DNA of 64,000 bases from Staphylococcus phage vB_SsapH-Golestan-100. Positions 3,323 to 20,003 of the stretch are shown in pieces (within the stretch, counting starts at the first letter, position 1; each line of letters opens with the position of its first letter). The DNA is taken from the sequence record LC647030.1. The stretch is one strand, 5' to 3'. The notes beneath the pieces are model-generated. The model worked only from the letters and a program-made list of their open reading frames with translations. It had not been told where the DNA came from and searched no databases. The position numbers and the translations under genes were made by a program.

Positions 3323-4615
3323 ATGTCACGTAAAAAACAAAGTGAAAACACGAACACAACACAGGTGGCAGGAGAACCACTAGATGCCTTATCAGTATTG
3401 AAACTAGGTAAAGATGTAGGTTTGACACTAATGAGAGATAATACTTACGCTAATGTATCTAATTGGCTACCTACAGGTATCCCTCAATATGATAGGATTT
3501 TAGGAGGCGGTATTCCTTTTGGTCGTGTAACTGAGATTTTTGGTAAGAAGGCATCAGGTAAGAGTACATTTGCTTTAGCCTTATCAAAACAAGCTAGTGA
3601 CCTTGATGTAGTAACTGTATGGATTGACGTAGAAGGAACTAGTGACATAAACCGTTTAACTCAGTTAGGGATTGACACTGAAAAGGTTTTTGCTATTCAG
3701 CCTGAATTTAACCCTAAAACTAACATGGTAGACCCACTTACAGTAGAGATTATTGGTGAGAAGATTGAGAACCTATTAAAGGTATTTAGAGATAACAGTC
3801 CCAATACACCTCTCTTAATCATATGGGACTCAATCGCAGCCACTTCATCTAAGGTAGAGATGGAAAGTGACTATGACTCAGAAAGACCTGGTTTAAAAGC
3901 TAAATCTCTAGCTAAGTTCTTTAACAAAGTAACACCATTAGTAAATGGTTATAACGTAGCTTTAGTTTGTATTAACCAAGCTCGTGATGTCATGGGTGGT
4001 AGCTTTGGTCATGGAGACAACATTGATTCTCCAGGAGGTAAAGCTCTTGAACACGTTGTATCACTTCAATTACTAGTTAACCAAGTAGATGCTAGTAAGT
4101 TTAATCAGAAAAAACCGACTTCTGCTAGTCAATATGGTGACTATGTAGGACATAACATGCAAGTAACGACTAAAAAATCTAAAGTATCTAGACCTAACCA
4201 AAAAGCTAAAGCTTTCATTGCTAGTGAATATGAGTTAGATGATGGTACAGAGATTAATGGTTTTGACCCTATGGTTAACTTTGCTATGTCAGCAGACAAC
4301 AATAAGATTTTAGATTCTAGAGGTTCTTGGAAAGTGTTTGTAGATAAGCATGGTCAAGAACATAAGAAATACATGAAAGACTGGACAATGTTCTTTTACT
4401 ATAATGAAGACCCTGAACTAATTGAAGAGATTGTAGGTAGAACTTACTTCAAGATGTTCCAAAAAGGATACCCTGCATTTAATAATCAGATAATTGATGT
4501 TTCTAATAAGCTAGGTATGAAAGAACTAAAACGTTTGTTTGAAGAGAAAGAAGCTACAGAGAACTCACAAGCAGAAGAAAGTGAGGTAAGTACAGATGGA
4601 AGCACAGAAGACTAA
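3323..4615 (+). CDS. RecA/UvsX-like recombinase (start moved to the ATG preceded by AAAGGAG)
   Basis: Walker A GKKASGKST, RecA-like core; the ORF track starts at 3287 but the RBS favours 3323. Confidence 0.8.
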   Translation: MSRKKQSENTNTTQVAGEPLDALSVLKLGKDVGLTLMRDNTYANVSNWLPTGIPQYDRILGGGIPFGRVTEIFGKKASGKSTFALALSKQASDLDVVTVWIDVEGTSDINRLTQLGIDTEKVFAIQPEFNPKTNMVDPLTVEIIGEKIENLLKVFRDNSPNTPLLIIWDSIAATSSKVEMESDYDSERPGLKAKSLAKFFNKVTPLVNGYNVALVCINQARDVMGGSFGHGDNIDSPGGKALEHVVSLQLLVNQVDASKFNQKKPTSASQYGDYVGHNMQVTTKKSKVSRPNQKAKAFIASEYELDDGTEINGFDPMVNFAMSADNNKILDSRGSWKVFVDKHGQEHKKYMKDWTMFFYYNEDPELIEEIVGRTYFKMFQKGYPAFNNQIIDVSNKLGMKELKRLFEEKEATENSQAEESEVSTDGSTED

Positions 4616-4943
4616 GTTTGAGCAAGCTGTAGAAGAGTACTTAAAGCAAGAAGGGGTCAACAAGACCCCTATTCCTTATATAGACATTAAACGTAGAATG
4701 CAAGAATGGTTTGAATCAGGAGAACCAATCTTAGTTGAAGATAGTAGTTTCCCTAGTTCTAGCTCCACTAAGATTTATATTAATTATGTAGGAGATAGAT
4801 GGGTTGGAGGATACTCTGAAGTATGGTATTTAGGTGAGGTAGTTAAAGTACCTGAAACTATTCATTACTCAGACCTATATATCACGAACCCTACAATTAA
4901 AAAACGTATCGTACCTGTAAAGGAAAACCCATATGAAGTCTAA
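4596..4943 (+). CDS. hypothetical protein, 115 aa
   Basis: ORF overlapping the recombinase stop; translational coupling likely. Confidence 0.5.
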   Translation: MEAQKTKFEQAVEEYLKQEGVNKTPIPYIDIKRRMQEWFESGEPILVEDSSFPSSSSTKIYINYVGDRWVGGYSEVWYLGEVVKVPETIHYSDLYITNPTIKKRIVPVKENPYEV

Positions 4944-5586
4944 TGGTAATAGATACATTACTGATACAGATGGACTTAATGTTACATTCCAAAGAGACTT
5001 AGATAAACTATATCTTCAGTATGCTAACCTAAGACACGCTATCTATCAACAACACGCTTGGAGATTTGATAACCATGTCAAGAAAGAAGAACTGAGAGAG
5101 TATATAGATGAGCAGTTTATCTTGTTGACTAAGGAATACAATGTTGGTTCTTCTGTAGATTTTCCTGGTTATATAAAAACCAAACTAAGTCTACGTGTAA
5201 AAGAAAGCTATGTAAAGAATAGAGTTAAAAAAGAGCACAATGAATTCTTAGGTAGTAATGATGATTCTATTGAGATGCTAGCAGAAGCTACAGATGACTC
5301 ATTAGAAGATGCAGAGCTCTTTAGTTATGTTATTGAAGAAGGAGAGTTTACTGACCTTCAAAAGTTACTGCTCTCTTATTTAGTTAGTAACAAATACAAA
5401 TTAGAACACCCTAGAATCATATCTATAATTTCTAAGTCAGAAAACATAAATCGTAAAGAAGTTGTAGAGGCTTATAATAGTCTTTATACTTACATTAAAG
5501 ACCGTTGTAAAGAGTTTGAAGCTTTATCTCCAAACCTAGGGATAAATGAAAAGGGTCACGTTAATACTAAGGTAGATAACTTGTAA
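4933..5586 (+). CDS. putative phage sigma-factor-like protein, 217 aa
   Basis: Position after the recombinase matches Twort-like phages; region-2-like aromatic/basic segment; no definitive motif. Confidence 0.4.
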   Translation: MKSNGNRYITDTDGLNVTFQRDLDKLYLQYANLRHAIYQQHAWRFDNHVKKEELREYIDEQFILLTKEYNVGSSVDFPGYIKTKLSLRVKESYVKNRVKKEHNEFLGSNDDSIEMLAEATDDSLEDAELFSYVIEEGEFTDLQKLLLSYLVSNKYKLEHPRIISIISKSENINRKEVVEAYNSLYTYIKDRCKEFEALSPNLGINEKGHVNTKVDNL

Positions 5587-5677
5587 CTACCTTACCCTTT
5601 CTGCTATATTGTCTATAAGCCTTACTACAGTAGTGCTATATTAATTTTGAAAACAAATACAGAAAGGGGAATTTTTC

Positions 5678-6022
5678 GTGGGAACTCCTATTGATAAAGA
5701 CCAAGCAACAGCAAAATTAGATACAGTTGAGGTTTATGTACCAGGCGCTAAAGAGACTAGAATTAACTTTCTACAATTTACACCATTAGTAGTAGCTATT
5801 ATTACATTACTAAACATGGTTTATACATCTATTACTGGTAATTCACTATTAGGTATTTCAGATGATGAATTAGCTTCATATGTAAACTTAATTATCTCAA
5901 CTATTGCAATTGCTGTTACAGCATATAAAAACCTTAACATCACTAAAGGCGGACGTGCTAGAGCAGAAGTTGCTAAGCAGGCTATACCCGATAAAAAAAA
6001 GTACAAACAGCAAAATAAATAA
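5678..6022 (+). CDS. small membrane protein, 114 aa (GTG start)
   Basis: Two predicted TM helices; AAAGGGGA RBS. Confidence 0.55.
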   Translation: MGTPIDKDQATAKLDTVEVYVPGAKETRINFLQFTPLVVAIITLLNMVYTSITGNSLLGISDDELASYVNLIISTIAIAVTAYKNLNITKGGRARAEVAKQAIPDKKKYKQQNK

Positions 6023-6052
6023 AATATATACATAAGAGAGGATTGAAAGTCT

Positions 6053-6898
6053 ATGGCAGTTGAATCAAAAGACATTCTTGAAATCATCAAAGAGAAAGCC
6101 CCAGCTATTGATAACACATATTTACAAGTAAAGACAACACCTGATGGTTACACAGGAACTTATGAAGGGTTCTATTCTTACCTAGTTCAAAAAGATGGAG
6201 AAGAGTATGGTGTTTACCCTATTGAAACTACAGGAGCTAATGAGCTTAAAGTGTTTAAGAAATCTCCAATTATCATGACAGATGGAGAGGAAGTACACTT
6301 TGTAGTTAGTACTATGGATGACCCATTCCAACATCCTATCATTAAACAAGAGAGTGTTGGCAAGCAAACAAAAGAACATGCTGTACTTCAAGCATTCTTA
6401 GCTTTTGCTAGCTCACGTTTCTCTATGACAGTTTACCACATTATGATTGCTGACGGTGAAGGTAGCTTCTCTTCAGTAGCTAATGCAGATGCTTTTGGTA
6501 ACTTAGTAGAAACTAACGCTCAAGCTTCAGAAGAAATTGTTAAAGGTAAATTCGATAAGAACGCACACGTGCAAGAAGTAGCATTTGATAAAGAGTCTGT
6601 TGAATTAAATATTGGTGAGACAGAACAAATCTTAACGCTTATTACACCTACTTATGCTTCTAATAAAGATGTTGTACTAACATCTTCTAGAGAGACAGTA
6701 GCTAAGATTAACAGTACAGGTCTTATTACAGCTGTAGCAGAAGGTGAAGCAACTATCACTGTTACAACAGCTGATGGTAAATTACGTGCTAAAGCTACAG
6801 TAACAGTAAAGCCTAGCACAGGTAGTCAAGAGCCTGAAGCACCTACAAATGTGAAAGTAGACGCACAAGAAACAAGCGCTAACGTATCAGCAGAATAG
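6053..6898 (+). CDS. Ig-like (Big_2) domain protein, probable virion decoration/adhesin
   Basis: C-terminal Big_2-like segment ...TAVAEGEATITVTTADGKLRAKATVTV. Confidence 0.75.
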   Translation: MAVESKDILEIIKEKAPAIDNTYLQVKTTPDGYTGTYEGFYSYLVQKDGEEYGVYPIETTGANELKVFKKSPIIMTDGEEVHFVVSTMDDPFQHPIIKQESVGKQTKEHAVLQAFLAFASSRFSMTVYHIMIADGEGSFSSVANADAFGNLVETNAQASEEIVKGKFDKNAHVQEVAFDKESVELNIGETEQILTLITPTYASNKDVVLTSSRETVAKINSTGLITAVAEGEATITVTTADGKLRAKATVTVKPSTGSQEPEAPTNVKVDAQETSANVSAE

Positions 6899-6966
6899 GT
6901 AGCATATAACAGCAGGGGCAACTCTGCTGATTATAAATATTTTAAAACAACTGGAGAGATGTACAA

Positions 6967-7488
6967 ATGGCAAACAAACTAAACTTGTATAAGGGAACCG
7001 AACTAGTAAAATCTGTAGATGCAAACCAAGAAGGTGCTACTGAAGTGCTTATCGAAGGGTTAAAGTCTAATACAAACTTTGCTAAAGGTGACTATAAGGT
7101 TTCTTTCAGCAATGATAGTGGTGAGTCTAATAAAGTAGATGTCCCAAGCTTCAAGACTTTAGCTATTTTAGTATCAGCTATTCAAGTAACTAATGCAACG
7201 GAAGCCTTAGAAGTCGGGGGCACAGCAACAATTAGTGCTTCAGTAACTCCTGAGAATGCTTCTGATAAGACTTTAGTATTTGTCTCAAACAATGAAGAGG
7301 TAGCAACAGTTGATGGCAGTGGTAAGATTACTGCTGTAGGTGAAGGTAGTACAAAAATTTCAGTAGCATCTAATGATGGTAATGCTTCTTCAGAAGTAAC
7401 AGTAAATGTAACTGTACCAGCACCATCAGAACCTGCTAATGTAACTGTAACACCAGCAGAAGAGTCAGCTACAATTTCAGTAGACTAA
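6967..7488 (+). CDS. FN3-like N-terminal domain plus Big_2 Ig-like domain protein
   Basis: Big_2 signature KITAVGEGSTKISVASNDGNASSEVTVNV; N-terminal ~65 aa is paralogous to 7508..7732 and to the N-terminus of 15553..17238. Confidence 0.75.
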   Translation: MANKLNLYKGTELVKSVDANQEGATEVLIEGLKSNTNFAKGDYKVSFSNDSGESNKVDVPSFKTLAILVSAIQVTNATEALEVGGTATISASVTPENASDKTLVFVSNNEEVATVDGSGKITAVGEGSTKISVASNDGNASSEVTVNVTVPAPSEPANVTVTPAEESATISVD

Positions 7489-7507
7489 TAGGAAGGATGA
7501 TTAACTA

Positions 7508-7732
7508 ATGGCTAAAACATTAAAAGTATACAAGAAATCAGGAGAGGAAGTTGCTCAACAAGAAGTTAGTGGCACAGGAGCTACCACAGTAGAGATTACT
7601 GGGCTTACAGCAGGCACTGACTATGCAGAAGGTGATTTCCAAGTATCCTTCACAGATGGTTCTAAGGAATCTAAAAAAGTAGATGTACCTGCATTTACAA
7701 CAAATGCTTCAGAACCAACAGAAGGAGCTTAG
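7508..7732 (+). CDS. stand-alone FN3-like domain protein, 74 aa (paralog of the 6967 N-terminal domain)
   Basis: Conserved ...EGDFQVSFTDGSKESKKVDVPAFTT, as in the neighbouring gene. Confidence 0.6.
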   Translation: MAKTLKVYKKSGEEVAQQEVSGTGATTVEITGLTAGTDYAEGDFQVSFTDGSKESKKVDVPAFTTNASEPTEGA

Positions 7733-7738
7733 TAGATA

Positions 7739-7771
7739 GACTAGGATTAATTTCCTAGTCTTTTTTTTTTT
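7739..7771 (+). terminator. rho-independent terminator
   Basis: Stem gactagga / tcctagtc, loop ttaatt, then T11 (followed by A8). Confidence 0.7.
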
Positions 7772-7794
7772 AAAAAAAATATCCGCTTCTATGC

Positions 7795-7824
7795 TTGACA
7801 GCTATGAAGCGGTTATGATATACT
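7795..7824 (+). promoter_or_regulatory. sigma70-like promoter (TTGACA-18-TATACT) embedded in a ccgcttc/gaagcgg inverted repeat
   Basis: TTGACA 7795-7800; TATACT 7819-7824; IR arms at 7783-7789 and 7807-7813 flank the -35. Confidence 0.55.
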
Positions 7825-7852
7825 AAGTATATACCAATTAGGAGGAGATATT

Positions 7853-8098
7853 ATGAGTAACGTATTTGCACAAGAACAATTTATTGACCGTTTAGAACAA
7901 GAAGGATTAGAAGTAGTAGAAGAGGATAGCTATTACACAGTAGAAGATGTAGAAGGTCATATTGCTATTGTAGACTTTGTAGGTGACATAGTAAACGTTT
8001 CTGATAATGAAGGGGTTAGAGTATCACATAACGTTGACCAAATCTACTTAGCGTTCTATGCAGTGATGGACGCACTGGATTATGAATTTGATGAATAA
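7853..8098 (+). CDS. hypothetical acidic protein, 81 aa
   Basis: AATTAGGAGGAG RBS. Confidence 0.6.
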   Translation: MSNVFAQEQFIDRLEQEGLEVVEEDSYYTVEDVEGHIAIVDFVGDIVNVSDNEGVRVSHNVDQIYLAFYAVMDALDYEFDE

Positions 8099-8103
8099 AG
8101 TTC

Positions 8104-8132
8104 TTGACACCACTCAAGGACTTTAGTATAAT
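8104..8132 (+). promoter_or_regulatory. consensus promoter (TTGACA-17-TATAAT)
   Basis: TTGACA 8104-8109, TATAAT 8127-8132. Confidence 0.6.
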
Positions 8133-8162
8133 AGTATTATAATCAATTAGGAGGAATTAGTT

Positions 8163-8585
8163 ATGAAATTACTAAAACAGATTATTAAGGTATTAGATGA
8201 GAGAGGTATTCAAGTAAATAACTTAAACATAGACGATGTGGTTAATGGAGAGTACGGAATTGAAATCAACAAAGAAATCACTATTGTCCATAGAGAAGGT
8301 TTGTATTATGCACTATATACGGAAGATGCTAGCTTAGAGGAGACATATTACAGTTCTCTAACAGAAGCATTAGAAAAGGTAGCTGACTATTTAAGTAGAG
8401 TAAAGGAAGGCTCTATCGTAAAATCTTTTCTTGGTGTATTCACATATAAAGTTATCAAACACAACAGTAAAGATTTGTATAACTTACTAAATGTAGATGA
8501 CAACACCCTATTATATACAGAGTGTGAAAGTATGGACTCTATTCAAGACAAGATTAACAGAGGTCAGTTTTATGCAGAACAATAA
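8163..8585 (+). CDS. hypothetical protein, 140 aa
   Basis: AATTAGGAGGAA RBS. Confidence 0.65.
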   Translation: MKLLKQIIKVLDERGIQVNNLNIDDVVNGEYGIEINKEITIVHREGLYYALYTEDASLEETYYSSLTEALEKVADYLSRVKEGSIVKSFLGVFTYKVIKHNSKDLYNLLNVDDNTLLYTECESMDSIQDKINRGQFYAEQ

Positions 8586-8904
8586 ATGGTACGCACTATG
8601 TGAATATAAAGGTAAAGGGAAGAATAAAAAGCCTTATCAAGTCCAAGCCTCTACAAGTAAAGAAAAGCTTTTAGATAGAAAGGATAGTTTAGAGTTAGAG
8701 TATCCTGATAGAGAATATGCAATAAAGTTAACAACAACCTTTGACAAAGAAAGAAAGTGGAGCGGGCTTAATCCGCTTCTCTTACTTAGAGTATATAAGC
8801 AATTGTATATTGTAAGTAGGAGTGATGACCCTACTAGATTAAATGTTGCATATAGCCTTCTGTTCACACAGAGGGTTTTTTATTTAAATGTTGACAGGAT
8901 TTAA
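8572..8904 (+). CDS. hypothetical protein, ~110 aa (uncertain; 3' end runs through a terminator hairpin and the next promoter)
   Basis: ATG at 8572 with an AGAGG RBS; the ORF track version starts at 8497 inside the previous gene. Confidence 0.3.
   Translation: MQNNKWYALCEYKGKGKNKKPYQVQASTSKEKLLDRKDSLELEYPDREYAIKLTTTFDKERKWSGLNPLLLLRVYKQLYIVSRSDDPTRLNVAYSLLFTQRVFYLNVDRI
8856..8884 (+). terminator. rho-independent terminator
   Basis: Stem ccttctg / cagaggg (one mismatch) followed by T7. Confidence 0.5.
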
Positions 8905-8919
8905 GTAGTGTGATATAGT
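8891..8919 (+). promoter_or_regulatory. promoter (TTGACA-17-TATAGT)
   Basis: TTGACA 8891-8896, TATAGT 8914-8919. Confidence 0.55.
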
Positions 8920-8949
8920 TAGTATATAAATTAATTAGGAGGAAAAGTA

Positions 8950-9135
8950 ATGGAGAATAGAGACATTATCAGTAACATATTAACAGAGTTAGAGTACATT
9001 GATACTAGTGAACTAAACCATAAACAACAAATGATGGTAGCTAGAGTAGAATCATTGTTAGATGACTTAGCATGGGAATTACAAGAAGAGGAAGCGGTTG
9101 AGTTTATGAAACAAATCAATGAGGAGGAAAAGTAA
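8950..9135 (+). CDS. hypothetical acidic protein, 61 aa
   Basis: AATTAGGAGGAAAAG RBS. Confidence 0.55.
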   Translation: MENRDIISNILTELEYIDTSELNHKQQMMVARVESLLDDLAWELQEEEAVEFMKQINEEEK

Positions 9136-10538
9136 TGAAACTATATTTAAACAGTAATATCGCAGAAGGAACACCTGAAGAGTTAGTAACTTATAAAGAA
9201 CTATTAAAGGAGAGAGGCCTAGACTCTGAGAAGTCATTGTTCCACTTTGGACATATGCATCAACCAACTGAAGAGGAAGCGGATGAACAAGAAGTAGATA
9301 ATTCTGTATATGATAAAGGAGCTTTCTATACAGTAACTGAGGAGGCTGAGGACTCACCATTACCTGTAGGGGCTATTCTCCAACATCTACACGGTAGAAT
9401 ATTCAGTGACTCTAAAGGACAACAATGTATCATCTCTAGACCATCTTTTGTAGATAGAGGTAATACACATTGGTTTGATGATAGTATTAACCAAGACCGT
9501 TTTGAACTAGCTAAACAATTAGGTATCCAACTAACGGACACTACAGACCTAGCACAAGCAACTGAAGGTAAGTACTTCAAAGTAACAGAAGAGCACTCAG
9601 ACTTAAGTGTAGGAGACCTTGTTACGATTGCTGAGGATGATAGAGATAACCTACCTCAGTGTAAGGATAAGCATGGTAACTTCTATTATGTATACCTAGG
9701 TGACCTAGAGCTAGTAGAAGATAACTCAGAATCAACTCTAAGCTCTACAGATGAAGCGGAAACCCCTTCTACAGAACTTAAAGTAGGAGATAGAGTAAAA
9801 GTATTAAAGAGTGAAGGAGGAGCTGTAGGAGAGGCTACTGTAACTGCTGTACTAGAAGATGGTGATGTAAGATTAGAAGGCAAGAGTGATAGTGGTGTGT
9901 ACTCATATAGATGGAGTAACAATATTTCAAACTTAGAGAAGGTTAAAGAAAAACCTGCATCCTTTGGGGCAATACAAGCTAAAGCCTACTTAGAGGATAA
10001 GTCAATAGACCAAGTAATTGAAGAAGTACAAAGCAAACACAAGCAAGAGTCTGATAATGCAAGAGTAGAGGAAGAAATCTATGCCTATTATGAAGTTGTA
10101 GACCCTGATGTATTTGCTAGTAGTGTAGAGAAAGGGACTGTATTCAAGGTGATAGGAAATACTTATACTCTACTAAACCAAGAAGGTAAGGACAGAGAAT
10201 ATATTAACGTAGTTACTTCTACAGGATTGACTCAAACAAGCCCTCTGAGAGATAGTGTGATTAAACCTATCATTAATGATTCATTCATTGCAGAACGCTT
10301 CAAGTTTGCTAAAGAAGTAGGCATTGTGCTTGCAGTAGATACAGACTTTGAGGAAGAGTGTAAAGACCACCACTTTAAGGTTACAGAGGAGGAACCACTC
10401 TCTAACTTTACCCCTACAGACATTCTAACTGTCCGTAGAGACGATAACACTAATGCTATTGCTTTCCAAGACCGTAATGGCAAGACACAGTATACACTAC
10501 TGGTAGATGTAAGAGAGATTGCTAGACCAAGTAAATAA
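9135..10538 (+). CDS. acidic protein, 467 aa, with an internal ~50-aa duplicated domain
   Basis: Two copies of ...GI.L..DTD....K.FKVTEE....L....D.T..DD (residues ~125-170 and ~385-430). Confidence 0.7.
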   Translation: MKLYLNSNIAEGTPEELVTYKELLKERGLDSEKSLFHFGHMHQPTEEEADEQEVDNSVYDKGAFYTVTEEAEDSPLPVGAILQHLHGRIFSDSKGQQCIISRPSFVDRGNTHWFDDSINQDRFELAKQLGIQLTDTTDLAQATEGKYFKVTEEHSDLSVGDLVTIAEDDRDNLPQCKDKHGNFYYVYLGDLELVEDNSESTLSSTDEAETPSTELKVGDRVKVLKSEGGAVGEATVTAVLEDGDVRLEGKSDSGVYSYRWSNNISNLEKVKEKPASFGAIQAKAYLEDKSIDQVIEEVQSKHKQESDNARVEEEIYAYYEVVDPDVFASSVEKGTVFKVIGNTYTLLNQEGKDREYINVVTSTGLTQTSPLRDSVIKPIINDSFIAERFKFAKEVGIVLAVDTDFEEECKDHHFKVTEEEPLSNFTPTDILTVRRDDNTNAIAFQDRNGKTQYTLLVDVREIARPSK

Positions 10539-10548
10539 ATAACCATCG

Positions 10549-10584
10549 ACCGCTTCTAGATAGATAAAGAAGCGGTTCTTTTAT
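10549..10584 (+). terminator. rho-independent terminator (accgcttc / gaagcggt stem)
   Basis: 8-bp stem, 12-nt loop, T-rich tail. Confidence 0.6.
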
Positions 10585-10693
10585 GTTTGAGTAACATAAT
10601 TTAAGATGCTGTCATACCAAGGTTTAAGTAAGGTTATTACAAGGCTTAAGTAAGAAAAAATAGAGTAAATCCTATATTTGAGTAACAAAGTGT

Positions 10694-10722
10694 TTGACAG
10701 CCCCTCTATTATATGTTATCAT
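10694..10722 (+). promoter_or_regulatory. promoter (TTGACA-17-TATCAT)
   Basis: TTGACA 10694-10699. Confidence 0.45.
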
Positions 10723-10752
10723 TAGGTATAGTCAATTAGAGGAGGAATTAAT

Positions 10753-11091
10753 ATGAGAATGGTTAGTATATATGAGTATTTCAAAGACAAGGAAGGACAA
10801 CGGTTGAGTGTAGGAGATAATAAAGAGGTACTGTTCAACTCAGTACGTTACCACGGTTCTGAAGAGGAGTTGGCTTTATACTTTAAGTATAAGGAGTACC
10901 CAATAGCAATAAGAGTAGATAAACCTCAAGCAGATTTAAGATTACGATTAAACAAGAAGATAACAGGGCTACAAAAGGATACCTTTACCCCTGTAGAGAA
11001 CCTAGACTCAACCTTATTAACCTATCTAGGTAAGTTTGCAGAAGAGATGGAAGAAAAAGTAGAGTATAAACTATTTGATTGGAGGAATTAA
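10753..11091 (+). CDS. hypothetical protein, 112 aa
   Basis: TAGAGGAGGAATTAAT RBS. Confidence 0.65.
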   Translation: MRMVSIYEYFKDKEGQRLSVGDNKEVLFNSVRYHGSEEELALYFKYKEYPIAIRVDKPQADLRLRLNKKITGLQKDTFTPVENLDSTLLTYLGKFAEEMEEKVEYKLFDWRN

Positions 11092-11092
11092 T

Positions 11093-11194
11093 ATGGTTAC
11101 AGTAGGAGCGTTATTTACAGGATTCTTTGTAGTCCTTGTAATAGGTATAATGATAGCAGGACTCGTTACACTAGTAATAGATAACAAGAAGTAA
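11093..11194 (+). CDS. 33-aa hydrophobic peptide (not in the ORF track)
   Basis: GGAGGAATTA RBS then ATG; MVTVGALFTGFFVVLVIGIMIAGLVTLVIDNKK; TAATATG overlap with the upstream gene. Confidence 0.45.
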   Translation: MVTVGALFTGFFVVLVIGIMIAGLVTLVIDNKK

Positions 11195-11217
11195 ATAAGA
11201 GAAGCGGAGGAGATATA

Positions 11218-11445
11218 ATGAGTTTAGTAACAGTAATAGTATTAACTGTAGTCATAGCCATGTTGTTAGGCTTAATAGCAAGTAAACTAATATTGTGGTT
11301 TGTAGATGCTTGTCAAAGGGATGAGAACAATATAACAGAGATTAGAGTAGTATTAACCCTATTAATAGTCAGCTTAGGAGTAGACCTAGCCTTTGCTGTT
11401 GATGGAGCAGTAAGAATACAAAATAGAATCCTATACTTTTTGTAG
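11218..11445 (+). CDS. small membrane protein, 75 aa
   Basis: GGAGGAGATATA RBS; two TM helices. Confidence 0.6.
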   Translation: MSLVTVIVLTVVIAMLLGLIASKLILWFVDACQRDENNITEIRVVLTLLIVSLGVDLAFAVDGAVRIQNRILYFL

Positions 11446-11454
11446 ATAGAAGCG

Positions 11455-11479
11455 GAGACCTTTACGGTCTCTTTTTTTT
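11455..11479 (+). terminator. rho-independent terminator
   Basis: gagacc-tttac-ggtctc followed by T8. Confidence 0.65.
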
Positions 11480-11519
11480 GTCTATAATAGCTTGACAAAT
11501 AGGGTGAAGTATGCTTTAT

Positions 11520-11850
11520 TGACAAAGGCGTAATAGTGTGGTAGTGGAGGGTAGAGGTTGAATAGTAGTGACATGGAGGCTGATAGATAGAGTCGAAGTC
11601 GGTTAGCGTGCTTGGGGCTTCCTCTATTCTTTTACCATTTGTTTATTTCCTTCCTCTACTATTCCTCCCTTTGATTGGCTGATTAATTGTTTGGTTGTTT
11701 CTCTATTACTCTTCCCTTCCTTACTCCCTATGCTATTGTCCCTCTATTGTTTTCCTACTCCTCCATTACTCTACTCCTATATAATAAAAGGCAATAGAGC
11801 TATTACCCTACTGCCTTTATACTTACTATTGTTATTACTATTATTATACT
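11520..11850. repeat. noncoding strand-asymmetric region (G/A-rich head, then a CT-rich body with degenerate CCTCTATTNNT direct repeats)
   Basis: cctctattct, cctctactatt, ctctattact, cctctattgt, ctccattact, ctactcctat; sits at the convergence of the + and - gene blocks. Confidence 0.4.
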
Positions 11851-12843
11851 CTACATGTTAAGTAACTTACGAGCCCAATCAGGAGAATTATCACAAAACG
11901 CTTTAACTTCTTCTATGTTATTTATAACCCCTTTTTGAATCTTGTAGATATACACAAAGTATTTAGTTATGAAAGCTTGGAAAGGTTCATACCTATTACC
12001 CTCTATAAACTCATACTGCATCTCTTCTGATAATAAATTTATCTCTGTAAAGAATGTATTATACATAGTATCAAATAAGCAAGGTATATCCTTACTATAC
12101 TCACTTAGTAATAGTATTCTTTCCTCATGACTTAGCGATACATCAAAATCAATAATACTTTTAATAGTTTTAGGTAATGAGTCGTAGTCTAGTAGTATAG
12201 ATAATAGTTCTTTCTTATTAAATATAAGGTTGAGTTTCTTGTATGCGACTATAAAGTCTTCTTTGACTACCTTTTTATCTACTAAGTCTTGTAATTTACT
12301 GTAATAGTTTTTAATTTGTTTATTCATATTAACCTTAGTAAATGCTGTCTCTAGATTATAAAATTCTTGTATAGAACTACTCTCTATATTAACACCTAAC
12401 TTATGTTTAAGCCATTTTGATTCTAGCTCAGATAGTCTACGTTCATAGATAGATTCATCTTTTGTTTCTATATGGTCTCCATGTATAGAGTCATAGTATA
12501 CAGCATCAATTATATAAGTATCAGCATTATCAAATCCGTATTTATCTAAGGCTTTTTTAAGTAGTTTACCACTACCCTTATACTTTGAATCGGGCTTTCC
12601 TTTATGTTTCCCTATATATGCTCTACCTGATTGTTTAAACACTGTTATATAGACATAACCATACATATGTTCTGAAAGTTTTTCAGACTGACCTCTTACG
12701 CTATGACCAAAAGTAAAAACATAGCTATAATGTTTTAATCTTCCTTTTCTACATTCTGATTGTACAATGTTATTTCTAACGTCTCTTACTTGAATTTCAC
12801 CTAAACCTTCTTGGTATACAAAATTATTTATTTTTTCTGTCAT
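11851..12843 (-). CDS. GIY-YIG family homing endonuclease (free-standing)
   Basis: GYVYITVF...YIGKHKG...GSGKLL motifs; start placed at MTEKINN (AAGGAG RBS); a 17-bp palindrome atatactactagtatat lies just upstream. Confidence 0.8.
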   Translation of the reverse strand: MTEKINNFVYQEGLGEIQVRDVRNNIVQSECRKGRLKHYSYVFTFGHSVRGQSEKLSEHMYGYVYITVFKQSGRAYIGKHKGKPDSKYKGSGKLLKKALDKYGFDNADTYIIDAVYYDSIHGDHIETKDESIYERRLSELESKWLKHKLGVNIESSSIQEFYNLETAFTKVNMNKQIKNYYSKLQDLVDKKVVKEDFIVAYKKLNLIFNKKELLSILLDYDSLPKTIKSIIDFDVSLSHEERILLLSEYSKDIPCLFDTMYNTFFTEINLLSEEMQYEFIEGNRYEPFQAFITKYFVYIYKIQKGVINNIEEVKAFCDNSPDWARKLLNM

Positions 12844-12933
12844 ATCTTTCATCTCCTTATTTGATATACTACTAGTATATAATAAAACTCTATCCAAGTC
12901 AATAGATAGAGTTAAAATAGTTATTTTGTTTTC

Positions 12934-13299
12934 TTACTTGTTATCCCACTCAAAGTCTAGTTCTAAGTCATTTATCTCTCCTGAGTTAACTTTCTCTATA
13001 AACCCTTCTAACTGGTGTTTAATAGCTGTACTGAAAGTAGATATAGGTACTACAATAACCATAGAGGCCTGAACTTTTTTATCTATTAAGAATTTTAAAC
13101 AATTATCATCTTCAGTACCTTTTATAGTTATTCTTAAATCCATGCCTTTATAGCTGAACACTAAGTATAAGCTCTCATCACTACTTAAATTTCTATGGCT
13201 TACATAGGATAGATATACCTCATAACTACCTACTTTTAATCTCATGTTTTCTCTTTCTTGAAAATAGTCACTGAGCTTACTTATGTTATAATTATCCAT
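12934..13299 (-). CDS. hypothetical protein (~121 aa; start at MDNYNIS)
   Basis: AAGGAGGAG RBS before the internal ATG. Confidence 0.55.
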   Translation of the reverse strand: MDNYNISKLSDYFQERENMRLKVGSYEVYLSYVSHRNLSSDESLYLVFSYKGMDLRITIKGTEDDNCLKFLIDKKVQASMVIVVPISTFSTAIKHQLEGFIEKVNSGEINDLELDFEWDNK

Positions 13300-13316
13300 A
13301 TTCTCCTCCTTATTAT

Positions 13317-13511
13317 TTACCATCGTTCAATAGATACAATATGTTTGGTGTCAATAATAACCTTTTTATCTTTACCCCATTTAGTTACTTCTATATAATC
13401 ATTACCCATAACATCTCTGTATACAGAACCTAACGCTTTGTAACTATTATAATAGGTGTATTTTCTATCATCAACAGTTCTTACTGTGTAGTTATATTTT
13501 CTACTTATCAT
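13317..13511 (-). CDS. hypothetical protein, 64 aa
   Basis: GAGGAGGAActatAATG start context. Confidence 0.55.
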   Translation of the reverse strand: MISRKYNYTVRTVDDRKYTYYNSYKALGSVYRDVMGNDYIEVTKWGKDKKVIIDTKHIVSIERW

Positions 13512-13711
13512 TATAGTTCCTCCTCATCAAACCACATTTCTAATACAGTGTCTGTTTCTGTATCTATATATAAATTTAACTCCCCGTGCATATAATGACT
13601 AATTACATCAGAGTCTGAGAACCCTACTTCATGACCGTCCCAATCTGACAACCAATGTAATCTATGATAATCTAAATTTTCTAGTGTTATTCCTTGTTCA
13701 GTATTTAACAT
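13511..13711 (-). CDS. hypothetical acidic protein, 66 aa
   Basis: AAGGAGAG RBS. Confidence 0.55.
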   Translation of the reverse strand: MLNTEQGITLENLDYHRLHWLSDWDGHEVGFSDSDVISHYMHGELNLYIDTETDTVLEMWFDEEEL

Positions 13712-13757
13712 TCTTTGACTCTCCTTCCAAGTTAAAAGTTAGTTTCAATTTCTACTA

Positions 13758-14111
13758 TTACCAACTAATATGAATAATAGGAACTAAAGTACTATCTGTA
13801 TAGCCACAGTTAAAGTAATCCTTAGCTATACCCTTCTCTGACCATCTAGGTTTCCTAACTTGTGTCTGTACTTTAAATCCTAACCTCTTATAGTGAAGCC
13901 CAATCTCTTTTAAGTACTCTAGCTTAGATAAAGAAAACTCCGTAGGATAATCTGTTCTTAGGTTCACAACAATATAGTCCTTACCTAAGCTACTACTGTT
14001 ATTAATTAAGTAGTCTATCTTGTTATAGATATATGTTAAATGTTGTTCCTTAGTTATTACTTTAGAATCCTTATGCTGTTTTACTTGTTTACGTGCTTTC
14101 TTAGCGTTCAT
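13758..14111 (-). CDS. hypothetical basic protein, 117 aa
   Basis: AAGGAGGAAtaaggATG. Confidence 0.6.
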   Translation of the reverse strand: MNAKKARKQVKQHKDSKVITKEQHLTYIYNKIDYLINNSSSLGKDYIVVNLRTDYPTEFSLSKLEYLKEIGLHYKRLGFKVQTQVRKPRWSEKGIAKDYFNCGYTDSTLVPIIHISW

Positions 14112-14113
14112 CC

Positions 14114-14341
14114 TTATTCCTCCTTATAAATTTTATTTTTAAAAAAGCCTACTACATCCTCAACATCGAGTACAGATAGAAATGATTTATTTCCTGTAAT
14201 TCTAAAGCCACTGTCTACGATTCTATTTGCAATGTAATAACCCTCAACCTTTAGTGATGCATATTTATTATCTATGTCTCCTAAAAATTCTACTTGAAAT
14301 CCTAACTGATTTAATTGAACATAAATGTCTGACAAGCTCAT
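14114..14341 (-). CDS. hypothetical protein (~75 aa; start at MSLSDIY)
   Basis: AAGGAGGAAttatAATG; TAATG overlap with the upstream gene. Confidence 0.55.
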   Translation of the reverse strand: MSLSDIYVQLNQLGFQVEFLGDIDNKYASLKVEGYYIANRIVDSGFRITGNKSFLSVLDVEDVVGFFKNKIYKEE

Positions 14342-14547
14342 TATAATTCCTCCTTCTCTTTCCTGATTGCACTTAGTAGCCAATCAAGATACTTCTCACG
14401 TTGAATCTCTTCTATCTTGCTTTCAAACTTATCACGTTCTAGTCCTTGGTTTATTATTCTAGAAGCTACTGCTAATCTCTTTGACTCTTCACTTAGATTA
14501 TCCTTGTAACTGTAAGTAACTAGTGCTTTATCTAAATCTAGTTCCAT
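14341..14547 (-). CDS. hypothetical protein, 68 aa
   Basis: ORF with RBS. Confidence 0.55.
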   Translation of the reverse strand: MELDLDKALVTYSYKDNLSEESKRLAVASRIINQGLERDKFESKIEEIQREKYLDWLLSAIRKEKEEL

Positions 14548-14565
14548 ACTATCTCCTCCTTAGTC

Positions 14566-15003
14566 CTATTTTAATCTACCTTGCTCTAAACTTACATTAG
14601 TATAGTTATTTTTTAAATCTTCGAGAGTCATTCTTTTAGATAAACTATAATTCTCATCTAGTAGTCTATAAACTTGATATTCATTTCTTTCTGCATAGTA
14701 ACTACTCTCTTCTACTACTAAAGTAAACCATTCTCCATATGCTTCGATGTCATCTCCAGGTAGCCAATCATTTTCTGTGAGTAGTTCTAAAACTTTAATT
14801 AGCATGTCATTATCCGACCAATGCCTTCTACCACCTGTTTCATTTTCTTGACGAGTGATATAACTATCATAACCTATGCAAACCTTAACCTTATTGTTAA
14901 TACCTACTGCTTCTTCATATAAATCTACGTGATTTAGTTCGATACCTTTTTCACTCATAGCTTTTACAATTAAACTTAATAATTCTGTTGTGTTATCTAC
15001 CAT
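14566..15003 (-). CDS. hypothetical protein, 145 aa
   Basis: AAGGAGGAActatAATG. Confidence 0.6.
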   Translation of the reverse strand: MVDNTTELLSLIVKAMSEKGIELNHVDLYEEAVGINNKVKVCIGYDSYITRQENETGGRRHWSDNDMLIKVLELLTENDWLPGDDIEAYGEWFTLVVEESSYYAERNEYQVYRLLDENYSLSKRMTLEDLKNNYTNVSLEQGRLK

Positions 15004-15015
15004 TATAGTTCCTCC

Positions 15016-15213
15016 TTATTTATCTGCTACATATTCATAGAACCCGACTTCTTCTCTGAGCTTAGCTTCTGATAGTGATTTAGTATGCTCTCTAGAAACA
15101 TCTTCTCCTTCTACCCATTTTACAAGCTCAATAAGTGCTTCTTCTAAATACGCTCTAGGACAATCTTCATTCTCCCAGTAGTTAACTCCTTCTTTTTCCC
15201 AACTATTACTCAT
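15016..15213 (-). CDS. hypothetical protein, 65 aa
   Basis: GAGGAGGAGctatAATG. Confidence 0.55.
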   Translation of the reverse strand: MSNSWEKEGVNYWENEDCPRAYLEEALIELVKWVEGEDVSREHTKSLSEAKLREEVGFYEYVADK

Positions 15214-15476
15214 TATAGCTCCTCCTCTATTAGTTCGTAAGTTTTATGAAAAATGTCATAATCACAAGCATAAAATTCTCCTTCAACACCCTTTATGACA
15301 TAGCTGTCTTTAGGTACTACCATAGTACCTTCTAGTGTATTTACAACAAGTATATAAGTATCACTTGATTCATAAGCTAAGTGTACTGTACCACCACTCC
15401 AATCATATAACTCTTGTTTATTATCTCCTTTATATTGCATAACCTCTACTTCTACTGGTTTCTTTCTAGCTAACAT
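15213..15476 (-). CDS. hypothetical protein, 87 aa
   Basis: GAGGAGGtttatAATG. Confidence 0.6.
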   Translation of the reverse strand: MLARKKPVEVEVMQYKGDNKQELYDWSGGTVHLAYESSDTYILVVNTLEGTMVVPKDSYVIKGVEGEFYACDYDIFHKTYELIEEEL

Positions 15477-15506
15477 TATAAACCTCCTCTATTAGTTGTT
15501 AATATG

Positions 15507-15544
15507 ATTATATAATAAAAAACTACCTATGTCAATAGGTAGTT
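15507..15544 (-). promoter_or_regulatory. composite intrinsic terminator plus promoter on the minus strand (-35 TTGACA inside the hairpin)
   Basis: 10-bp stem aactacctat / ataggtagtt; minus strand reads TTGACA-taggtagttttttatta-TATAAT, so the U-tract of the terminator forms the spacer. Confidence 0.55.
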
Positions 15545-15552
15545 TTAGCTTA

Positions 15553-17238
15553 CTAATACTGTATTTCTTTCCCAGCAATAAGTTTATTTTGATATTGTCC
15601 TTGACGGATGTAGATAGTGCTTTCAGGTGCTCCTGAACTTATACTGAATTCACTACCAAACCCTGCGCAATTGTCTAACCACATATTACTTCCTGAAGAT
15701 GTTTGGAAATCTTTTCCTTGGTAGCTCTCAAAGCCTATACATCCTAGATTCCAAGAGTTAGTACCCTGATTAACATCAGCTATATTTCCTCCATCATTTC
15801 TACCGTAAGTACCGTTAACCCGTATGACAGTTAATCCATCATGAACAGTAGAGCCATTATTAGATTTAGCACCTGCTGTACCTTTTTCAAATCCATTATC
15901 TAAACCTATACAATCTATCTCAGTTATAATAGGTTTAGAAGAATCCGCACCTATATGATAGTTAAACCCGTCCATATAGTTATTAGATGCTGTTGATTTA
16001 CTTACTACTACTTCTTTACCTCCAATAACCTCAAGACCATTACCATTAGTTTGAGAAGAGAAGTTTAAAATACAATTATTAACATATAGATTATTGTTTT
16101 TGTTTAGCTCAAATCTAGCTGGTCTAGCTCCCCCATATATGTTTAGTTTTTCTATATAGAAATTATTTGGTACATTAGTAGCTAACAAGTTCTGAGAAGC
16201 TAACAATGGTATAACCATATTATTAGGAGTTTTAGAATTAAAGTTAACAAAAACTTTTGTTCCGTCAGAAAACCAAGAAAAAGGAGTCTCCTCTACCATA
16301 GCTAAGGAGCTAACATTTACAAATTCATTATAGATGTTGTTACTTGCCTCACTAAAGTCTACGACTCTCTTAACTGCTGACCTTGTAAACTCATAAGTGT
16401 TATTCTTACCATAGGACTTAACCCATGTCGGCTCATCTGCCATGAATAGATTAACATTAGAGCCTAGGCCTATTATGTTTATACTCATATTGTTTATTGG
16501 TAATAAAAGAACACCGTTAGTTCTAAAGTAGTTACCCTCGTTAATATAAAGAGTATCACCAGTACTTAATACTGATTGAGCTTTTTTTAATGTTTTAAAA
16601 GAGCTATTTTGAGTTGAGCCATCGTTACTATCATTACCATTAGTACCATCTACATAAACCTCTTTACCGCCTGTAACTTTATTATCTTCTATGTTGTATT
16701 TCACACCAAAGGTACCTCTAGCATCAGTCATTATTCTACCTTTTAAAGGGTATTCTTTTACAGGAAAATCTAAAGGAGTGTTTACAGTAATAGGTAACTT
16801 AGGAGCAAAGTTACCATCAAGCCCTGGTATACCTTGAGCACCTTGTTCCCCTTTTAACTCTTGTTTGTCAGCCTCTGTTAAATCATTAAAAGTTAACTTA
16901 TCACCTTTAGCACCTCCTATAGACTCTAACCACTCTTCAGGTGTACCAGTAAACCCATTATCTACTGCTATATCATAAGCAGATTTAGGCTTAACTAGTA
17001 AGTGGTCTTTGAAGTAGAAAGAAATCTCTTTATAAGAAGATTCTAGTGTTGTAAACTCAGGTACTACGACCTTCTCTGATTCATAGTTGTCTCCCATCCA
17101 AGCTATATAAAACTCCCCTTGAGGGTATGTAGTATTTGGAGCCAGGTTAGCTATAATAACGGAGCCTTGGTCACCTTCTATATTATAGCCTTTTGCTAAT
17201 AAATTACCTTCCTTATCATAAGCTTCTAAATGTGGCAT
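15553..17238 (-). CDS. adhesin/receptor-binding-like protein (FN3-like N-domain, short collagen-like GXY run, right-handed beta-helix-like body)
   Basis: N-terminus homologous to 6967/7508 products; GEQGAQGIPGLDG; repetitive N/G/I-rich beta-helix-like segment NNLYVNNCILNFSSQTNGNGLEVIGG. Confidence 0.7.
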   Translation of the reverse strand: MPHLEAYDKEGNLLAKGYNIEGDQGSVIIANLAPNTTYPQGEFYIAWMGDNYESEKVVVPEFTTLESSYKEISFYFKDHLLVKPKSAYDIAVDNGFTGTPEEWLESIGGAKGDKLTFNDLTEADKQELKGEQGAQGIPGLDGNFAPKLPITVNTPLDFPVKEYPLKGRIMTDARGTFGVKYNIEDNKVTGGKEVYVDGTNGNDSNDGSTQNSSFKTLKKAQSVLSTGDTLYINEGNYFRTNGVLLLPINNMSINIIGLGSNVNLFMADEPTWVKSYGKNNTYEFTRSAVKRVVDFSEASNNIYNEFVNVSSLAMVEETPFSWFSDGTKVFVNFNSKTPNNMVIPLLASQNLLATNVPNNFYIEKLNIYGGARPARFELNKNNNLYVNNCILNFSSQTNGNGLEVIGGKEVVVSKSTASNNYMDGFNYHIGADSSKPIITEIDCIGLDNGFEKGTAGAKSNNGSTVHDGLTVIRVNGTYGRNDGGNIADVNQGTNSWNLGCIGFESYQGKDFQTSSGSNMWLDNCAGFGSEFSISSGAPESTIYIRQGQYQNKLIAGKEIQY

Positions 17239-17299
17239 ATTATAGTCTCCTATCTATTTGTGTATTATATGAGTAATATAACATCTTATTCACATTAGG

Positions 17300-17530
17300 T
17301 TAGACACAATCTACCATCCACTCCCAATCCCAAAAGTCTCTTATCTTATAACCATCTAACTCATGTTTATTGCCTTTTAGTATACCTGTAATAATATACC
17401 TATCATGGCCTTCTCTTACGTATTCTTCACCCAGCTCTTCTAAGAGGTCTTTTGTATGATTTTGAGTACCTGCATATATTGCTGTTTTACTATCCTCCTC
17501 AATTACATATAGAGAATAAATCTCATACAT
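17300..17530 (-). CDS. hypothetical protein, 76 aa
   Basis: GGAGGGGAtgtatAATG. Confidence 0.55.
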   Translation of the reverse strand: MYEIYSLYVIEEDSKTAIYAGTQNHTKDLLEELGEEYVREGHDRYIITGILKGNKHELDGYKIRDFWDWEWMVDCV

Positions 17531-18309
17531 TATACATCCCCTCCGATAGTTAAAGGGTAGCCATCTTGTCTAGTCAATTGCTTTTTATAGTTCTCTACTG
17601 TGTCATCTAAGTGCATAATAACTACTTCTGTATTGAATCTTTTTAAATCTTCATCTAACATGTCACATGTCCCCATAATGTTTTTATAATAGTTAGCATG
17701 TACTGGGCTTTTATTTAAAGAAACATCTAAATATAGTCCTGTTAGTCTCAACTCAGGGAATCTATCCATAAACCAAGTATAGTGACGGAACAAACTGTCA
17801 TTACCGCTTTGAAATTTTTCTGTAGTATCTCCTGAGTAAATAATCATGTCGGTATTATCTTTTATTAGAGTAATACTATACGTTTTAACTTGAGGAACAT
17901 GCTTTACTTCTTCAAAGATGACTTCTACATTACCTTTATAAATATATTGTTTACCATAAGGGACTACTTCTAAATTGAACATAGATTCTTCAATACCTGA
18001 GATTAGTAGATAGTCCAATAAATCTCTTCTCAAGGTATTATAAATCAGTATATTAACCTTAACATCTTTTGCATAATACATCCACTCAATTAACGTTCCT
18101 AAACTTCCTACATGGTCTGTATGCATGTGTGTAAGGATGATATTAACTTCTTTATACTTATCTAACCCTTTTTCTCTAAACGTGTTGAAGACTGTTGAAC
18201 CACAATCAATCATAAACACTTTATCATCCTCTATAAAATACCAACTATTATTTCCATACTCCTGTGAATTAAATGCTGACCCAAAACCTAATGATTTTAA
18301 TTTAAACAT
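17530..18309 (-). CDS. metallo-beta-lactamase-fold hydrolase (RNase Z/J-like nuclease or phosphodiesterase)
   Basis: HxHxDH motif ILTHMHTDHVGSLG. Confidence 0.8.
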   Translation of the reverse strand: MFKLKSLGFGSAFNSQEYGNNSWYFIEDDKVFMIDCGSTVFNTFREKGLDKYKEVNIILTHMHTDHVGSLGTLIEWMYYAKDVKVNILIYNTLRRDLLDYLLISGIEESMFNLEVVPYGKQYIYKGNVEVIFEEVKHVPQVKTYSITLIKDNTDMIIYSGDTTEKFQSGNDSLFRHYTWFMDRFPELRLTGLYLDVSLNKSPVHANYYKNIMGTCDMLDEDLKRFNTEVVIMHLDDTVENYKKQLTRQDGYPLTIGGDV

Positions 18310-18314
18310 ATTTC

Positions 18315-18872
18315 CTACACCCTTTCCATTCTCTTATTCATATATTTTAAGCTATTATAAAACTCTCTAGCGTGGTGCTTGTAATAGAAATTCTTTTTGT
18401 GAGACTTACCATTGTCATCAATCCATAAAACGTTCCATGTATTTGTATCTAGTGTGTCTGTTATGTCTTGAATAATACTTCTTATCATAATTAAGCACTC
18501 TCCACTTAGTCCTTCATTTAATGCTTCTTCTAATGCATCCATCTCTATGTCCTCATTAGCATAGCCTCTACCACCATAAAACAAGTAGTTTTCATAAGCA
18601 TCTCTAAAATCATAGAATCTAGTTTTAGAGCTTATATTAGGGTTAGCTAAAATGTCTTCACTCTTCTCCAACCAGTATTCCCTCAATTCATATATAGAAG
18701 GTTGTTCTACTTTGTCACTTCTTTTTACTACGTCTTTCTCTACCTTTAAGTCCTCTTTACTATAGTTACGTTCTTGTATCATAAACTCAACCCACTTTTT
18801 AACATCTTCTATATCTTCATAGATTTTGTCAACGTGGGATTTAACTGAACATAGGTATACTGCATAATGCAT
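18315..18872 (-). CDS. hypothetical protein, 185 aa
   Basis: GAGGAGGAGaatcaagATG. Confidence 0.6.
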   Translation of the reverse strand: MHYAVYLCSVKSHVDKIYEDIEDVKKWVEFMIQERNYSKEDLKVEKDVVKRSDKVEQPSIYELREYWLEKSEDILANPNISSKTRFYDFRDAYENYLFYGGRGYANEDIEMDALEEALNEGLSGECLIMIRSIIQDITDTLDTNTWNVLWIDDNGKSHKKNFYYKHHAREFYNSLKYMNKRMERV

Positions 18873-19194
18873 CTTGATTCTCCTCCTCTTCTTCTTCTTT
18901 CCATCCTATAGTAATGTAACCTATATAAGTTTCTTGGTCATTACTATAACTACTTACAGTATAACCTTTATCTAACAATTTGTCAATTATCCATTCTTTT
19001 GTAGCTTCATTTATGCTGTAATTAAAGAAGTCTGCTTTAGTACTAAAAAGCCCTTTATGTGTTGCTACGTGAATTTTATAGTTAACTTCACACCACATTA
19101 CGTAGTATCCTCCTAGTTTGCTTACCTTCTCTCTATCCTTTTTAAACCGTTTCTTTTGTTTTTCTGATTTTCTTCTAGCTTTGTTGCTATTCAT
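18841..19194 (-). CDS. hypothetical protein with basic N-terminus, 117 aa
   Basis: AAGGAGGGGtagtAATG. Confidence 0.55.
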   Translation of the reverse strand: MNSNKARRKSEKQKKRFKKDREKVSKLGGYYVMWCEVNYKIHVATHKGLFSTKADFFNYSINEATKEWIIDKLLDKGYTVSSYSNDQETYIGYITIGWKEEEEEENQDALCSIPMFS

Positions 19195-19237
19195 TACTAC
19201 CCCTCCTTAATTAACCCTTCCTATTTAATGTACCTTT

Positions 19238-19275
19238 ATTGTATAATAAAAAAGAACCTAAGTCAATAGGTTCTT
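19238..19275 (-). promoter_or_regulatory. second composite terminator plus promoter (TTGACT-17-TACAAT spanning the hairpin)
   Basis: Stem aagaaccta / taggttctt; minus strand TTGACT-taggttcttttttatta-TACAAT. Confidence 0.55.
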
Positions 19276-19287
19276 TAATAATAAATG

Positions 19288-19800: not shown

Positions 19801-19820
19801 CTCTAATTCCTCCTTTTAAT

Positions 19821-20003
19821 TTACAATTCATTCATATGTTCAAGCATGTTATCATAGATAGCAAAAATTATGCTACCTGCAATTGGTAAGAAAAAGTCTA
19901 TAGGCTCATCGTACCAAATATTTGTACCTAACCAACCAAACAAAAAGTTAAAAAATAGTATACCACTAAAATAACCGATAAACTTCTCTAGTATACGCAG
20001 CAT
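19821..20003 (-). CDS. small membrane protein, 60 aa
   Basis: AAGGAGGAG RBS; hydrophobic. Confidence 0.5.
   Translation of the reverse strand: MLRILEKFIGYFSGILFFNFLFGWLGTNIWYDEPIDFFLPIAGSIIFAIYDNMLEHMNEL

Follow-up and report, generated by a model that had tools for sequence, protein, structure and literature searches.

How concatemers of SPO1/Twort-like phages give rise to exact terminal repeats of 8-13 kb is, to our knowledge, not understood. Phage K has a long terminal repeat (LTR) of 8,486 bp and phage Stab22 one of 12,225 bp. In both phages the annotated LTR end lies in a gap between convergent genes, after the last rightward LTR gene and a terminator, with three to four copies of AAGTCAACA just beyond the right border. 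The left border of phage K is preceded by 35-bp tandem repeats, each of which contains the outer border half-site ACTAAGTACCT, and a perfect 12-bp inverted repeat (TAAGTACCTGGG / CCCAGGTACTTA) extends across both borders. In phage 812 the 35-bp tandem repeats vary from two to more than twenty copies (Botka et al., PMC6445280). By counting read starts, Li et al. found that K-like phages have a unique left terminus, GGAATTCTTTTACC...; at the right terminus the read starts formed no sharp peak, and a precise sequence-specified right cut is therefore not established even in these best-studied relatives (PMC3896407). Phage vB_SurM-PSU4 (Baoshanvirus) has five copies of (A/T)GTCAACA in the equivalent gap and about nine copies of AAAAGCATAAGTA on the other side.

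Copies of short words also flank the DNA-end sites of other phages, namely the pac hexamers of P1, the R sites in cosB of lambda and pacL/pacR of SPP1; binding of the small terminase subunit to these sites has been demonstrated. In phage T7, end processing is tied to T7 RNA polymerase promoters. The T7 elements SRL and SRR, which Dunn and Studier are said to have described in 1983, are reportedly degenerate arrays of short repeats beside each copy of the terminal repeat.

Here we analyze a non-coding gap in Staphylococcus phage vB_SsapH-Golestan-100 (LC647030.1), a large Staphylococcus myovirus of the Twort/K type. The window, meaning the whole stretch of DNA that was analyzed, is 64,000 nucleotides long. 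We propose that the gap is the inner (right-hand) border of the LTR together with the punctuation between two transcription units, the position of the end being taken from the records of sister phages. As a whole, this explanation has in our estimate a probability of about 0.6.

Results

Relatives of the locus were searched for in phage records using tblastn with the last two LTR genes and blastn with both border regions. In all collections searched, the only close relatives were the Staphylococcus capitis phages S2G3 (PV037055.1) and Fi4S2 (PV037056.1). Exact-pattern scans of viral and genome contigs gave no further relatives, and a 16-mer scan of metagenome contigs resulted in 120 chance matches without extended similarity. 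A related-locus search and exact-protein look-ups were empty, and a literature search found no paper on S2G3.

The gap spans 405 nt (11446-11850) and is flanked by convergent genes. The last gene of the rightward LTR block, which encodes 75 aa on the plus strand, ends at 11445; the first leftward gene past the border encodes 348 aa and occupies 11851-12897 on the minus strand. A predicted intrinsic terminator on the plus strand (11454-11472; GGAGACC-TTTAC-GGTCTCT followed by T8) closes the rightward LTR block and is kept in the alignments with S2G3 and Fi4S2. The leftward block is closed on the minus strand by a predicted terminator hairpin at 11787-11818 (AAAGGCAGTAGGG...CTATTGCCTTT, then T-rich), for which the alignment with S2G3 gave no counterpart. 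The initial annotation had placed the region between convergent replication and early blocks. The convergence is confirmed, but the replication block is not the neighbor, because small LTR-type genes (7769-11445) adjoin the gap. The replication block (1-7768) is joined to these genes at a T11/A8 junction, which is absent from the relatives, and it falls outside the colinear block 7769-26860.

The earlier view that neither strand contains an ORF was also borne out. The ORFs overlapping 11480-11860 in the ORF list encode only 30-56 aa from TTG or ATG starts; none of them is conserved or credible, and the minus strand of the repeat array described below has stops in all three frames. The sole ORF annotated here in S2G3 is S2G3_039 (50 aa; L001 4032-4184). 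Because this ORF has no Shine-Dalgarno sequence and its counterpart in the window is put out of frame by an 8-nt indel, S2G3_039 is probably spurious. A scan for tRNA and tmRNA genes found none. Rfam gave no match at the gathering score over the whole window; with relaxed E-values nothing credible was obtained for 11380-11900, the top match reaching 23.9 bits versus a cut-off of 60. A self-BLAST of the region against the window found no second copy.

The position of the border follows from the sister phages. The S2G3 record has an identical 12,469 bp at both ends with 0 mismatches, and the Fi4S2 record, also with a 12,469-bp repeat at both ends, has its LTR end at the same coordinate. The LTR of S2G3 ends with ...GCGTGCTG|GGGGCTTCC, which can also be written ...GTTAGCGTGCTG|GGGGCTTCC or ...GTCGGTTAGCGTGCTG|GGGGCTTCCTCTACT. 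In the alignment, position 12469|12470 of S2G3 and Fi4S2 corresponds to 11613|11614 of the window (GCTT|GGGG), and this is the predicted right-hand LTR end, with an uncertainty of about 10 nt. It is embedded in a conserved border core, TGAATAGTAGTGACATGGAGGCTGATAGATAGAGTCGAAGTCGGTTAGCGTGCTT|GGGGCTTCCTCTA (11560-11626). The 60 nt that touch the border (11560-11619) are 97-100% identical to S2G3 and Fi4S2; from 11620 on the identity to S2G3 falls to about 40-50%, and the megablast match to S2G3 stops at 11626. A variable purine-rich segment on the plus strand inside the LTR (11530-11559; GGTAGTGGAGGGTAGAGG...) has only 53% identity to S2G3 and includes an 8-nt indel.

The initial annotation had offered four candidates for the region. 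A terminal-repeat boundary is the one that these data support, since in S2G3 and Fi4S2 the repeat found at both ends of the records has its last base at the homologous point; an iteron origin and a ribosome-titrating RNA did not stand, as detailed below. Binding sites for a phage DNA-binding protein at the array are possible, and recognition by an end-forming machinery would be a special case of this. We consider the presence of an LTR border highly probable for the lineage and somewhat less so for the genome in the window, whose physical end at 11613|11614 we infer from the sister records.

The layout of the convergent gap is the same in K, Stab22 and PSU4. The LTRs differ in length, with 12.5 kb in the sister phages S2G3 and Fi4S2 versus 8.5 kb in phage K. 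The right border of the window also lacks the K-type 12-bp inverted repeat; a CCCAGG(C/T)TACT sequence is absent and only GGGGCTTCC-T-CTA is found. The 12-bp inverted repeat defines the K subtype and not LTR borders in general. Both borders of S2G3 have a CTG|GGG junction, and the right border of the window reads CTT|GGGG.

Repeat statistics, base composition and homology to S2G3 together delimit a pyrimidine-rich array of degenerate repeats on the plus strand, just outside the LTR (11618-11775). The word CTCTAYT occurs five times (at 11622, 11654, 11701, 11742 and 11769) with irregular spacing of 32, 47, 41 and 27 nt. In 5000 dinucleotide-preserving shuffles of the same 178 nt, 0.34 +/- 0.57 copies were expected and not a single shuffle reached five; the at least five degenerate repeats noticed earlier in this DNA are thus confirmed. 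Over the whole window and both strands the word has 54 matches, 6 of which are within 11622-11799. A longer unit, CTTCCTCTAYT, starts at 11618 and again at 11650; a repeat search found two pairs of 27-nt repeats with 74% identity. The array resembles a reiteration of the outer border sequence, CTTCCTCTAYT. It is homologous to S2G3 from 12470 to about 12600, with the order of units swapped (local score 86 versus 47 +/- 8 for shuffles). This comparison suggests that the array evolves via gain, loss and reshuffling of units, as is typical of tandem repeats.

The strand asymmetry described in the initial annotation, a G/A-rich plus strand that becomes nearly pure C/T, is evident from the purine fraction. 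This is 0.66 at 11530-11612 and 0.224 at 11613-11782, the latter being the lowest value for 170 nt in the whole 64 kb and 4.6 sd under that of the neighboring minus-strand gene block (0.411 +/- 0.041). The flip from purines to pyrimidines coincides exactly with the homologue of the S2G3 LTR end, 11613|11614. The cumulative GC skew turns at the gap, which is what convergent genes produce. G-quadruplex or triplex DNA was considered and dropped, since the tracts are not pure. Second in pyrimidine content within the window is the stretch 19050-19250, which, unlike the array, is coding; it corresponds to the Lys/Arg/Glu-rich N-terminus of a 117-aa leftward ORF (18841-19194).

The gene on the far side of the array differs between the sister phages. 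The 348-aa gene of the window gave a partial match to PHROG 314 (homing endonuclease) with an E value of 4e-13 and no match to Pfam. It is about 90% identical on the DNA level to an 'endonuclease' gene of PSU4, a phage of a different genus, where it occupies the same position, as the first gene to run leftward beyond the LTR-side gap. The equivalent position in S2G3 is taken by a gene with a Panacea (SocA-like antitoxin) domain. The 348-aa gene looks like a mobile cassette, which may target the spot of the first leftward gene. A functional link between the endonuclease gene and the border was dropped because this neighbor gene differs between the sister phages.

These gene differences bear on the view that the border is real and the array has no function. 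The array would then be a decaying 3' tail and trailer that belonged to the leftward operon and was left behind when the neighboring gene gave way to a homing-endonuclease cassette; its repeats would have arisen by slippage or unequal crossing-over, and sense strands are purine-loaded in these phages. Consistent with such a passive by-product, the homologous S2G3 array partly encodes the last 23 aa of the Panacea-domain ORF, past the Pfam domain, where the window has the different, PSU4-like gene. Unit order and number vary between the sister phages, and each border array is rich in purines on the strand that is sense for the operon entering it. However, a tblastn search with the S2G3 Panacea protein found no remnant in the region. 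The purine fraction of 0.22 is 4.6 sd beyond that of the coding block on the same strand, the motif recurs above compositional expectation, and the occurrence of unrelated arrays at this location in K, Stab22 and PSU4 points to selection for the presence of repeats. Taken together, we regard a functionless array as somewhat unlikely. The part of the S2G3 Panacea ORF (S2G3_040) that is encoded by the repeat array is its tail at L001 4271-4340; this ORF may simply run on into the array.

Upstream of the core, inside the LTR end, the plus strand contains promoter-like boxes (11477-11526). A TATAAT is located at 11483-11488. TTGACAAA occurs at both 11492 and 11519, and TATGC-TTTATT comes 17 nt after the first TTGACA. 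The boxes are conserved in S2G3 and Fi4S2. As putative sigma-A promoters they are weak, because either the -10 element lacks A2 or the -35 element matches at only 4 of 6 positions. An 11-nt inverted repeat, TTTGTCTATAA / TTATTGACAAA (11477-11487 / 11516-11526), brackets the TTGACA box and could serve as an operator for a promoter at the LTR end. Both arms of this repeat (11477-11526) are one-mismatch DnaA-box-like words, and the repeat is kept with changes in S2G3.

The conserved promoter-like boxes speak for the alternative that the gap is a locus for a non-coding RNA. An RNA could start on the plus strand from the TATAAT/TTGACA boxes (about 11495-11527) and cross the border; its 5' half would be purine-rich, and its CU-rich 3' half could pair with Shine-Dalgarno sequences. 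Alternatively, a purine-rich RNA could result from read-through on the minus strand. The positionally equivalent gap of phage K (8370-8665, minus strand) has been reported as the small RNA snc004 (PMC9241854). Several observations argue against such an RNA. Rfam searches at gathering score and relaxed E-values were negative, and neither strand folds with an energy better than that of its shuffles (z -0.46 and -0.80). Besides the weak -10 elements, conservation is lacking in the 3' half, and in S2G3 this DNA contains no terminator on the plus strand. On the minus strand the terminator precedes the array, and UCCC and CCUCC words, counted on the sequence, are not above composition. The related proposal of a ribosome-titrating RNA assumed a minus strand rich in Shine-Dalgarno-like words. 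Such words are few (GGAGG occurs twice, and the density of 4 per 300 nt is equalled elsewhere in the window), and the array is preceded by the leftward terminator. A non-coding RNA locus is, in our view, quite unlikely.

The headline of the initial annotation was an array of iterons in a replication origin. The array shares with iteron origins direct repeats in gene-free DNA, and the cumulative GC skew turns here. A variant of this idea is an injection stop at the inner end of the terminal repeat, as in phage T5, where the inner end of the LTR contains repeat-rich DNA that is thought to pause injection. We know of no two-step injection in the phage family of the window. The structure of the array does not resemble that of an origin. 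Instead of at least three direct repeats of about 17-22 bp in helical phase, its units have a core of 7-11 nt, too short and too unevenly spaced for iterons. An AT-rich unwinding element is absent; the G+C content of 0.38-0.43 is higher than that of the flanks (about 0.30). There is no cluster of DnaA boxes, as the two one-mismatch words are both outside the array and the count over the window is at chance, and no hairpin or cruciform exceeds chance. An initiator gene is not adjacent, the neighbors being small LTR genes and the endonuclease-like gene, and the nearness to replication genes stems from the junction that is absent in the relatives. The iteron origin is thus unsupported, and we consider an origin or an injection stop very improbable.

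An LTR border in the gap is also supported by the opposite border, whose homologue the window contains. The homologue of the LTR start is at 42262|42263 (TAGTAGCCTG|GGGTAGCCCC), and the S2G3 record begins at position 1 with GGGTAGCCCC. The CCTG|GG junction at this point is the same as that of the left end of phage K (AAGTACCTG|GGAATTC). Just outside this border the plus strand contains a partner array (42105-42262) of purine-rich units of the TAGGGGTA type with several GGGG runs; the S2G3 counterpart differs by a single 21-nt unit. In this lineage the unique genome is hence bracketed by two arrays, a pyrimidine-rich one that follows the left LTR copy and a purine-rich one that precedes the right copy.

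The two arrays have little more in common than a shared flavor. The word TAG[AG]GG has its two densest clusters of the 64 kb in the two border regions, in opposite orientation. This clustering is only suggestive, because the word was picked after viewing the arrays and there is no significant alignment between them. Local alignments of the right with the left border region, direct and inverted, were within the range of shuffles, as were those of each border region with the borders of phage K. TAGAGG-type words are present on both sides of the border in opposite orientation, but neither folding nor alignment distinguishes the resulting dyad from chance. Folded as DNA, the two borders and the K border likewise did no better than shuffles, with no hairpin or cruciform beyond chance.

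A comparison with S2G3 indicates that the window is a mosaic in which at least six blocks are rearranged. The segment 1-7768 corresponds in inverted orientation to S2G3 49792 to 40922, 7769-11626 to the S2G3 LTR (6785-12482), 12840-26851 to 13667-27102, 34321-43397 to 133800-142458, and 45295-59139, again inverted, to 40929 to 27094. Further LTR pieces follow, and several of the displaced blocks are LTR pieces. The joins are at T11/A8 (7757-7776), T18 (26843-26860) and T21 (45282-45302). T18 and T21 are the only homopolymers of at least 12 nt in the 64 kb; at these sites the runs of the sister phages are T8-T9. This pattern suggests mis-joining (chimeric assembly) or recombination at T runs. 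Further rearrangement sites were seen at about 44298, 59139-59994 and 61923-62606. These rearrangements at homopolymer runs make the long-range context of the window suspect; the local context is sound because the array and the border are within the colinear block 7769-26860.

Discussion

Judging from the records compared here, short repeats just outside the LTR borders are a recurring, lineage-specific trait of the Twortvirinae. The window has two traits of the LTR borders of these SPO1-like phages, the position in a convergent gap and the short direct repeats just outside. Repeats beside such borders are already known in related phages; the array is real and fairly ordinary. Its sequence is unrelated to that of the AAGTCAACA repeats in K and Stab22, and it differs from them also by its strong strand asymmetry.

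Whether the array takes part in the formation of ends is a separate question, and we consider such a role possible but doubtful. A mechanism can be outlined as follows. Replicating concatemers would contain one LTR copy between two unique regions. An end-forming machinery, i.e. the terminase or an associated nuclease, would recognize both LTR borders, with the result that the repeat is duplicated and packaged molecules end here. The conserved core of about 65 bp would be the region of recognition and cutting for the right end. The array would provide reiterated outer half-sites, CTTCCTCTAYT, as accessory binding sites, comparable to the 35-bp repeats of phage K, the arrays of T7 and the sites in P1 pac and lambda cosB. 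In its full form the proposal states that these half-sites, read by the end-forming machinery, would set the right end of the 12-kb exact repeat and would form, together with the purine-rich array, a pair of oppositely oriented signals that brackets the unique genome. This full form is speculative and, on present evidence, unlikely.

The known systems are similar to the array in different respects. Like the array of the window, SRL and SRR of T7 are in unique DNA that abuts a direct terminal repeat, at the concatemer junction. T7 belongs to an unrelated phage family, however, with a repeat of 160 bp versus 12 kb and another motif, and we know of no proven function for its arrays. The terminase sites of P1, lambda and SPP1 share the reiterated words; the window differs from them in a packaging strategy with long exact terminal repeats.

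If the proposed mechanism is correct, the border would provide a concrete, mutable cis-element for how SPO1/Twort-like phages duplicate and delimit their long terminal repeats. The lineage-specific asymmetric array and the conserved 65-bp core are a defined target for deletion, binding and end mapping. If the array is passive, the finding amounts to the mere annotation of an LTR border. Knowing where the border lies is also useful for orienting and checking assemblies of therapeutic-type Staphylococcus phages.

The record of vB_SurM-PSU4 is a collapsed or permuted assembly, in which the presumed LTR borders are at L131 2700-2950 and L132 5060-5440. The presumed border with the (A/T)GTCAACA copies also contains TTGGGGCTT, a sequence that it has in common with positions 11612-11620 of the window.
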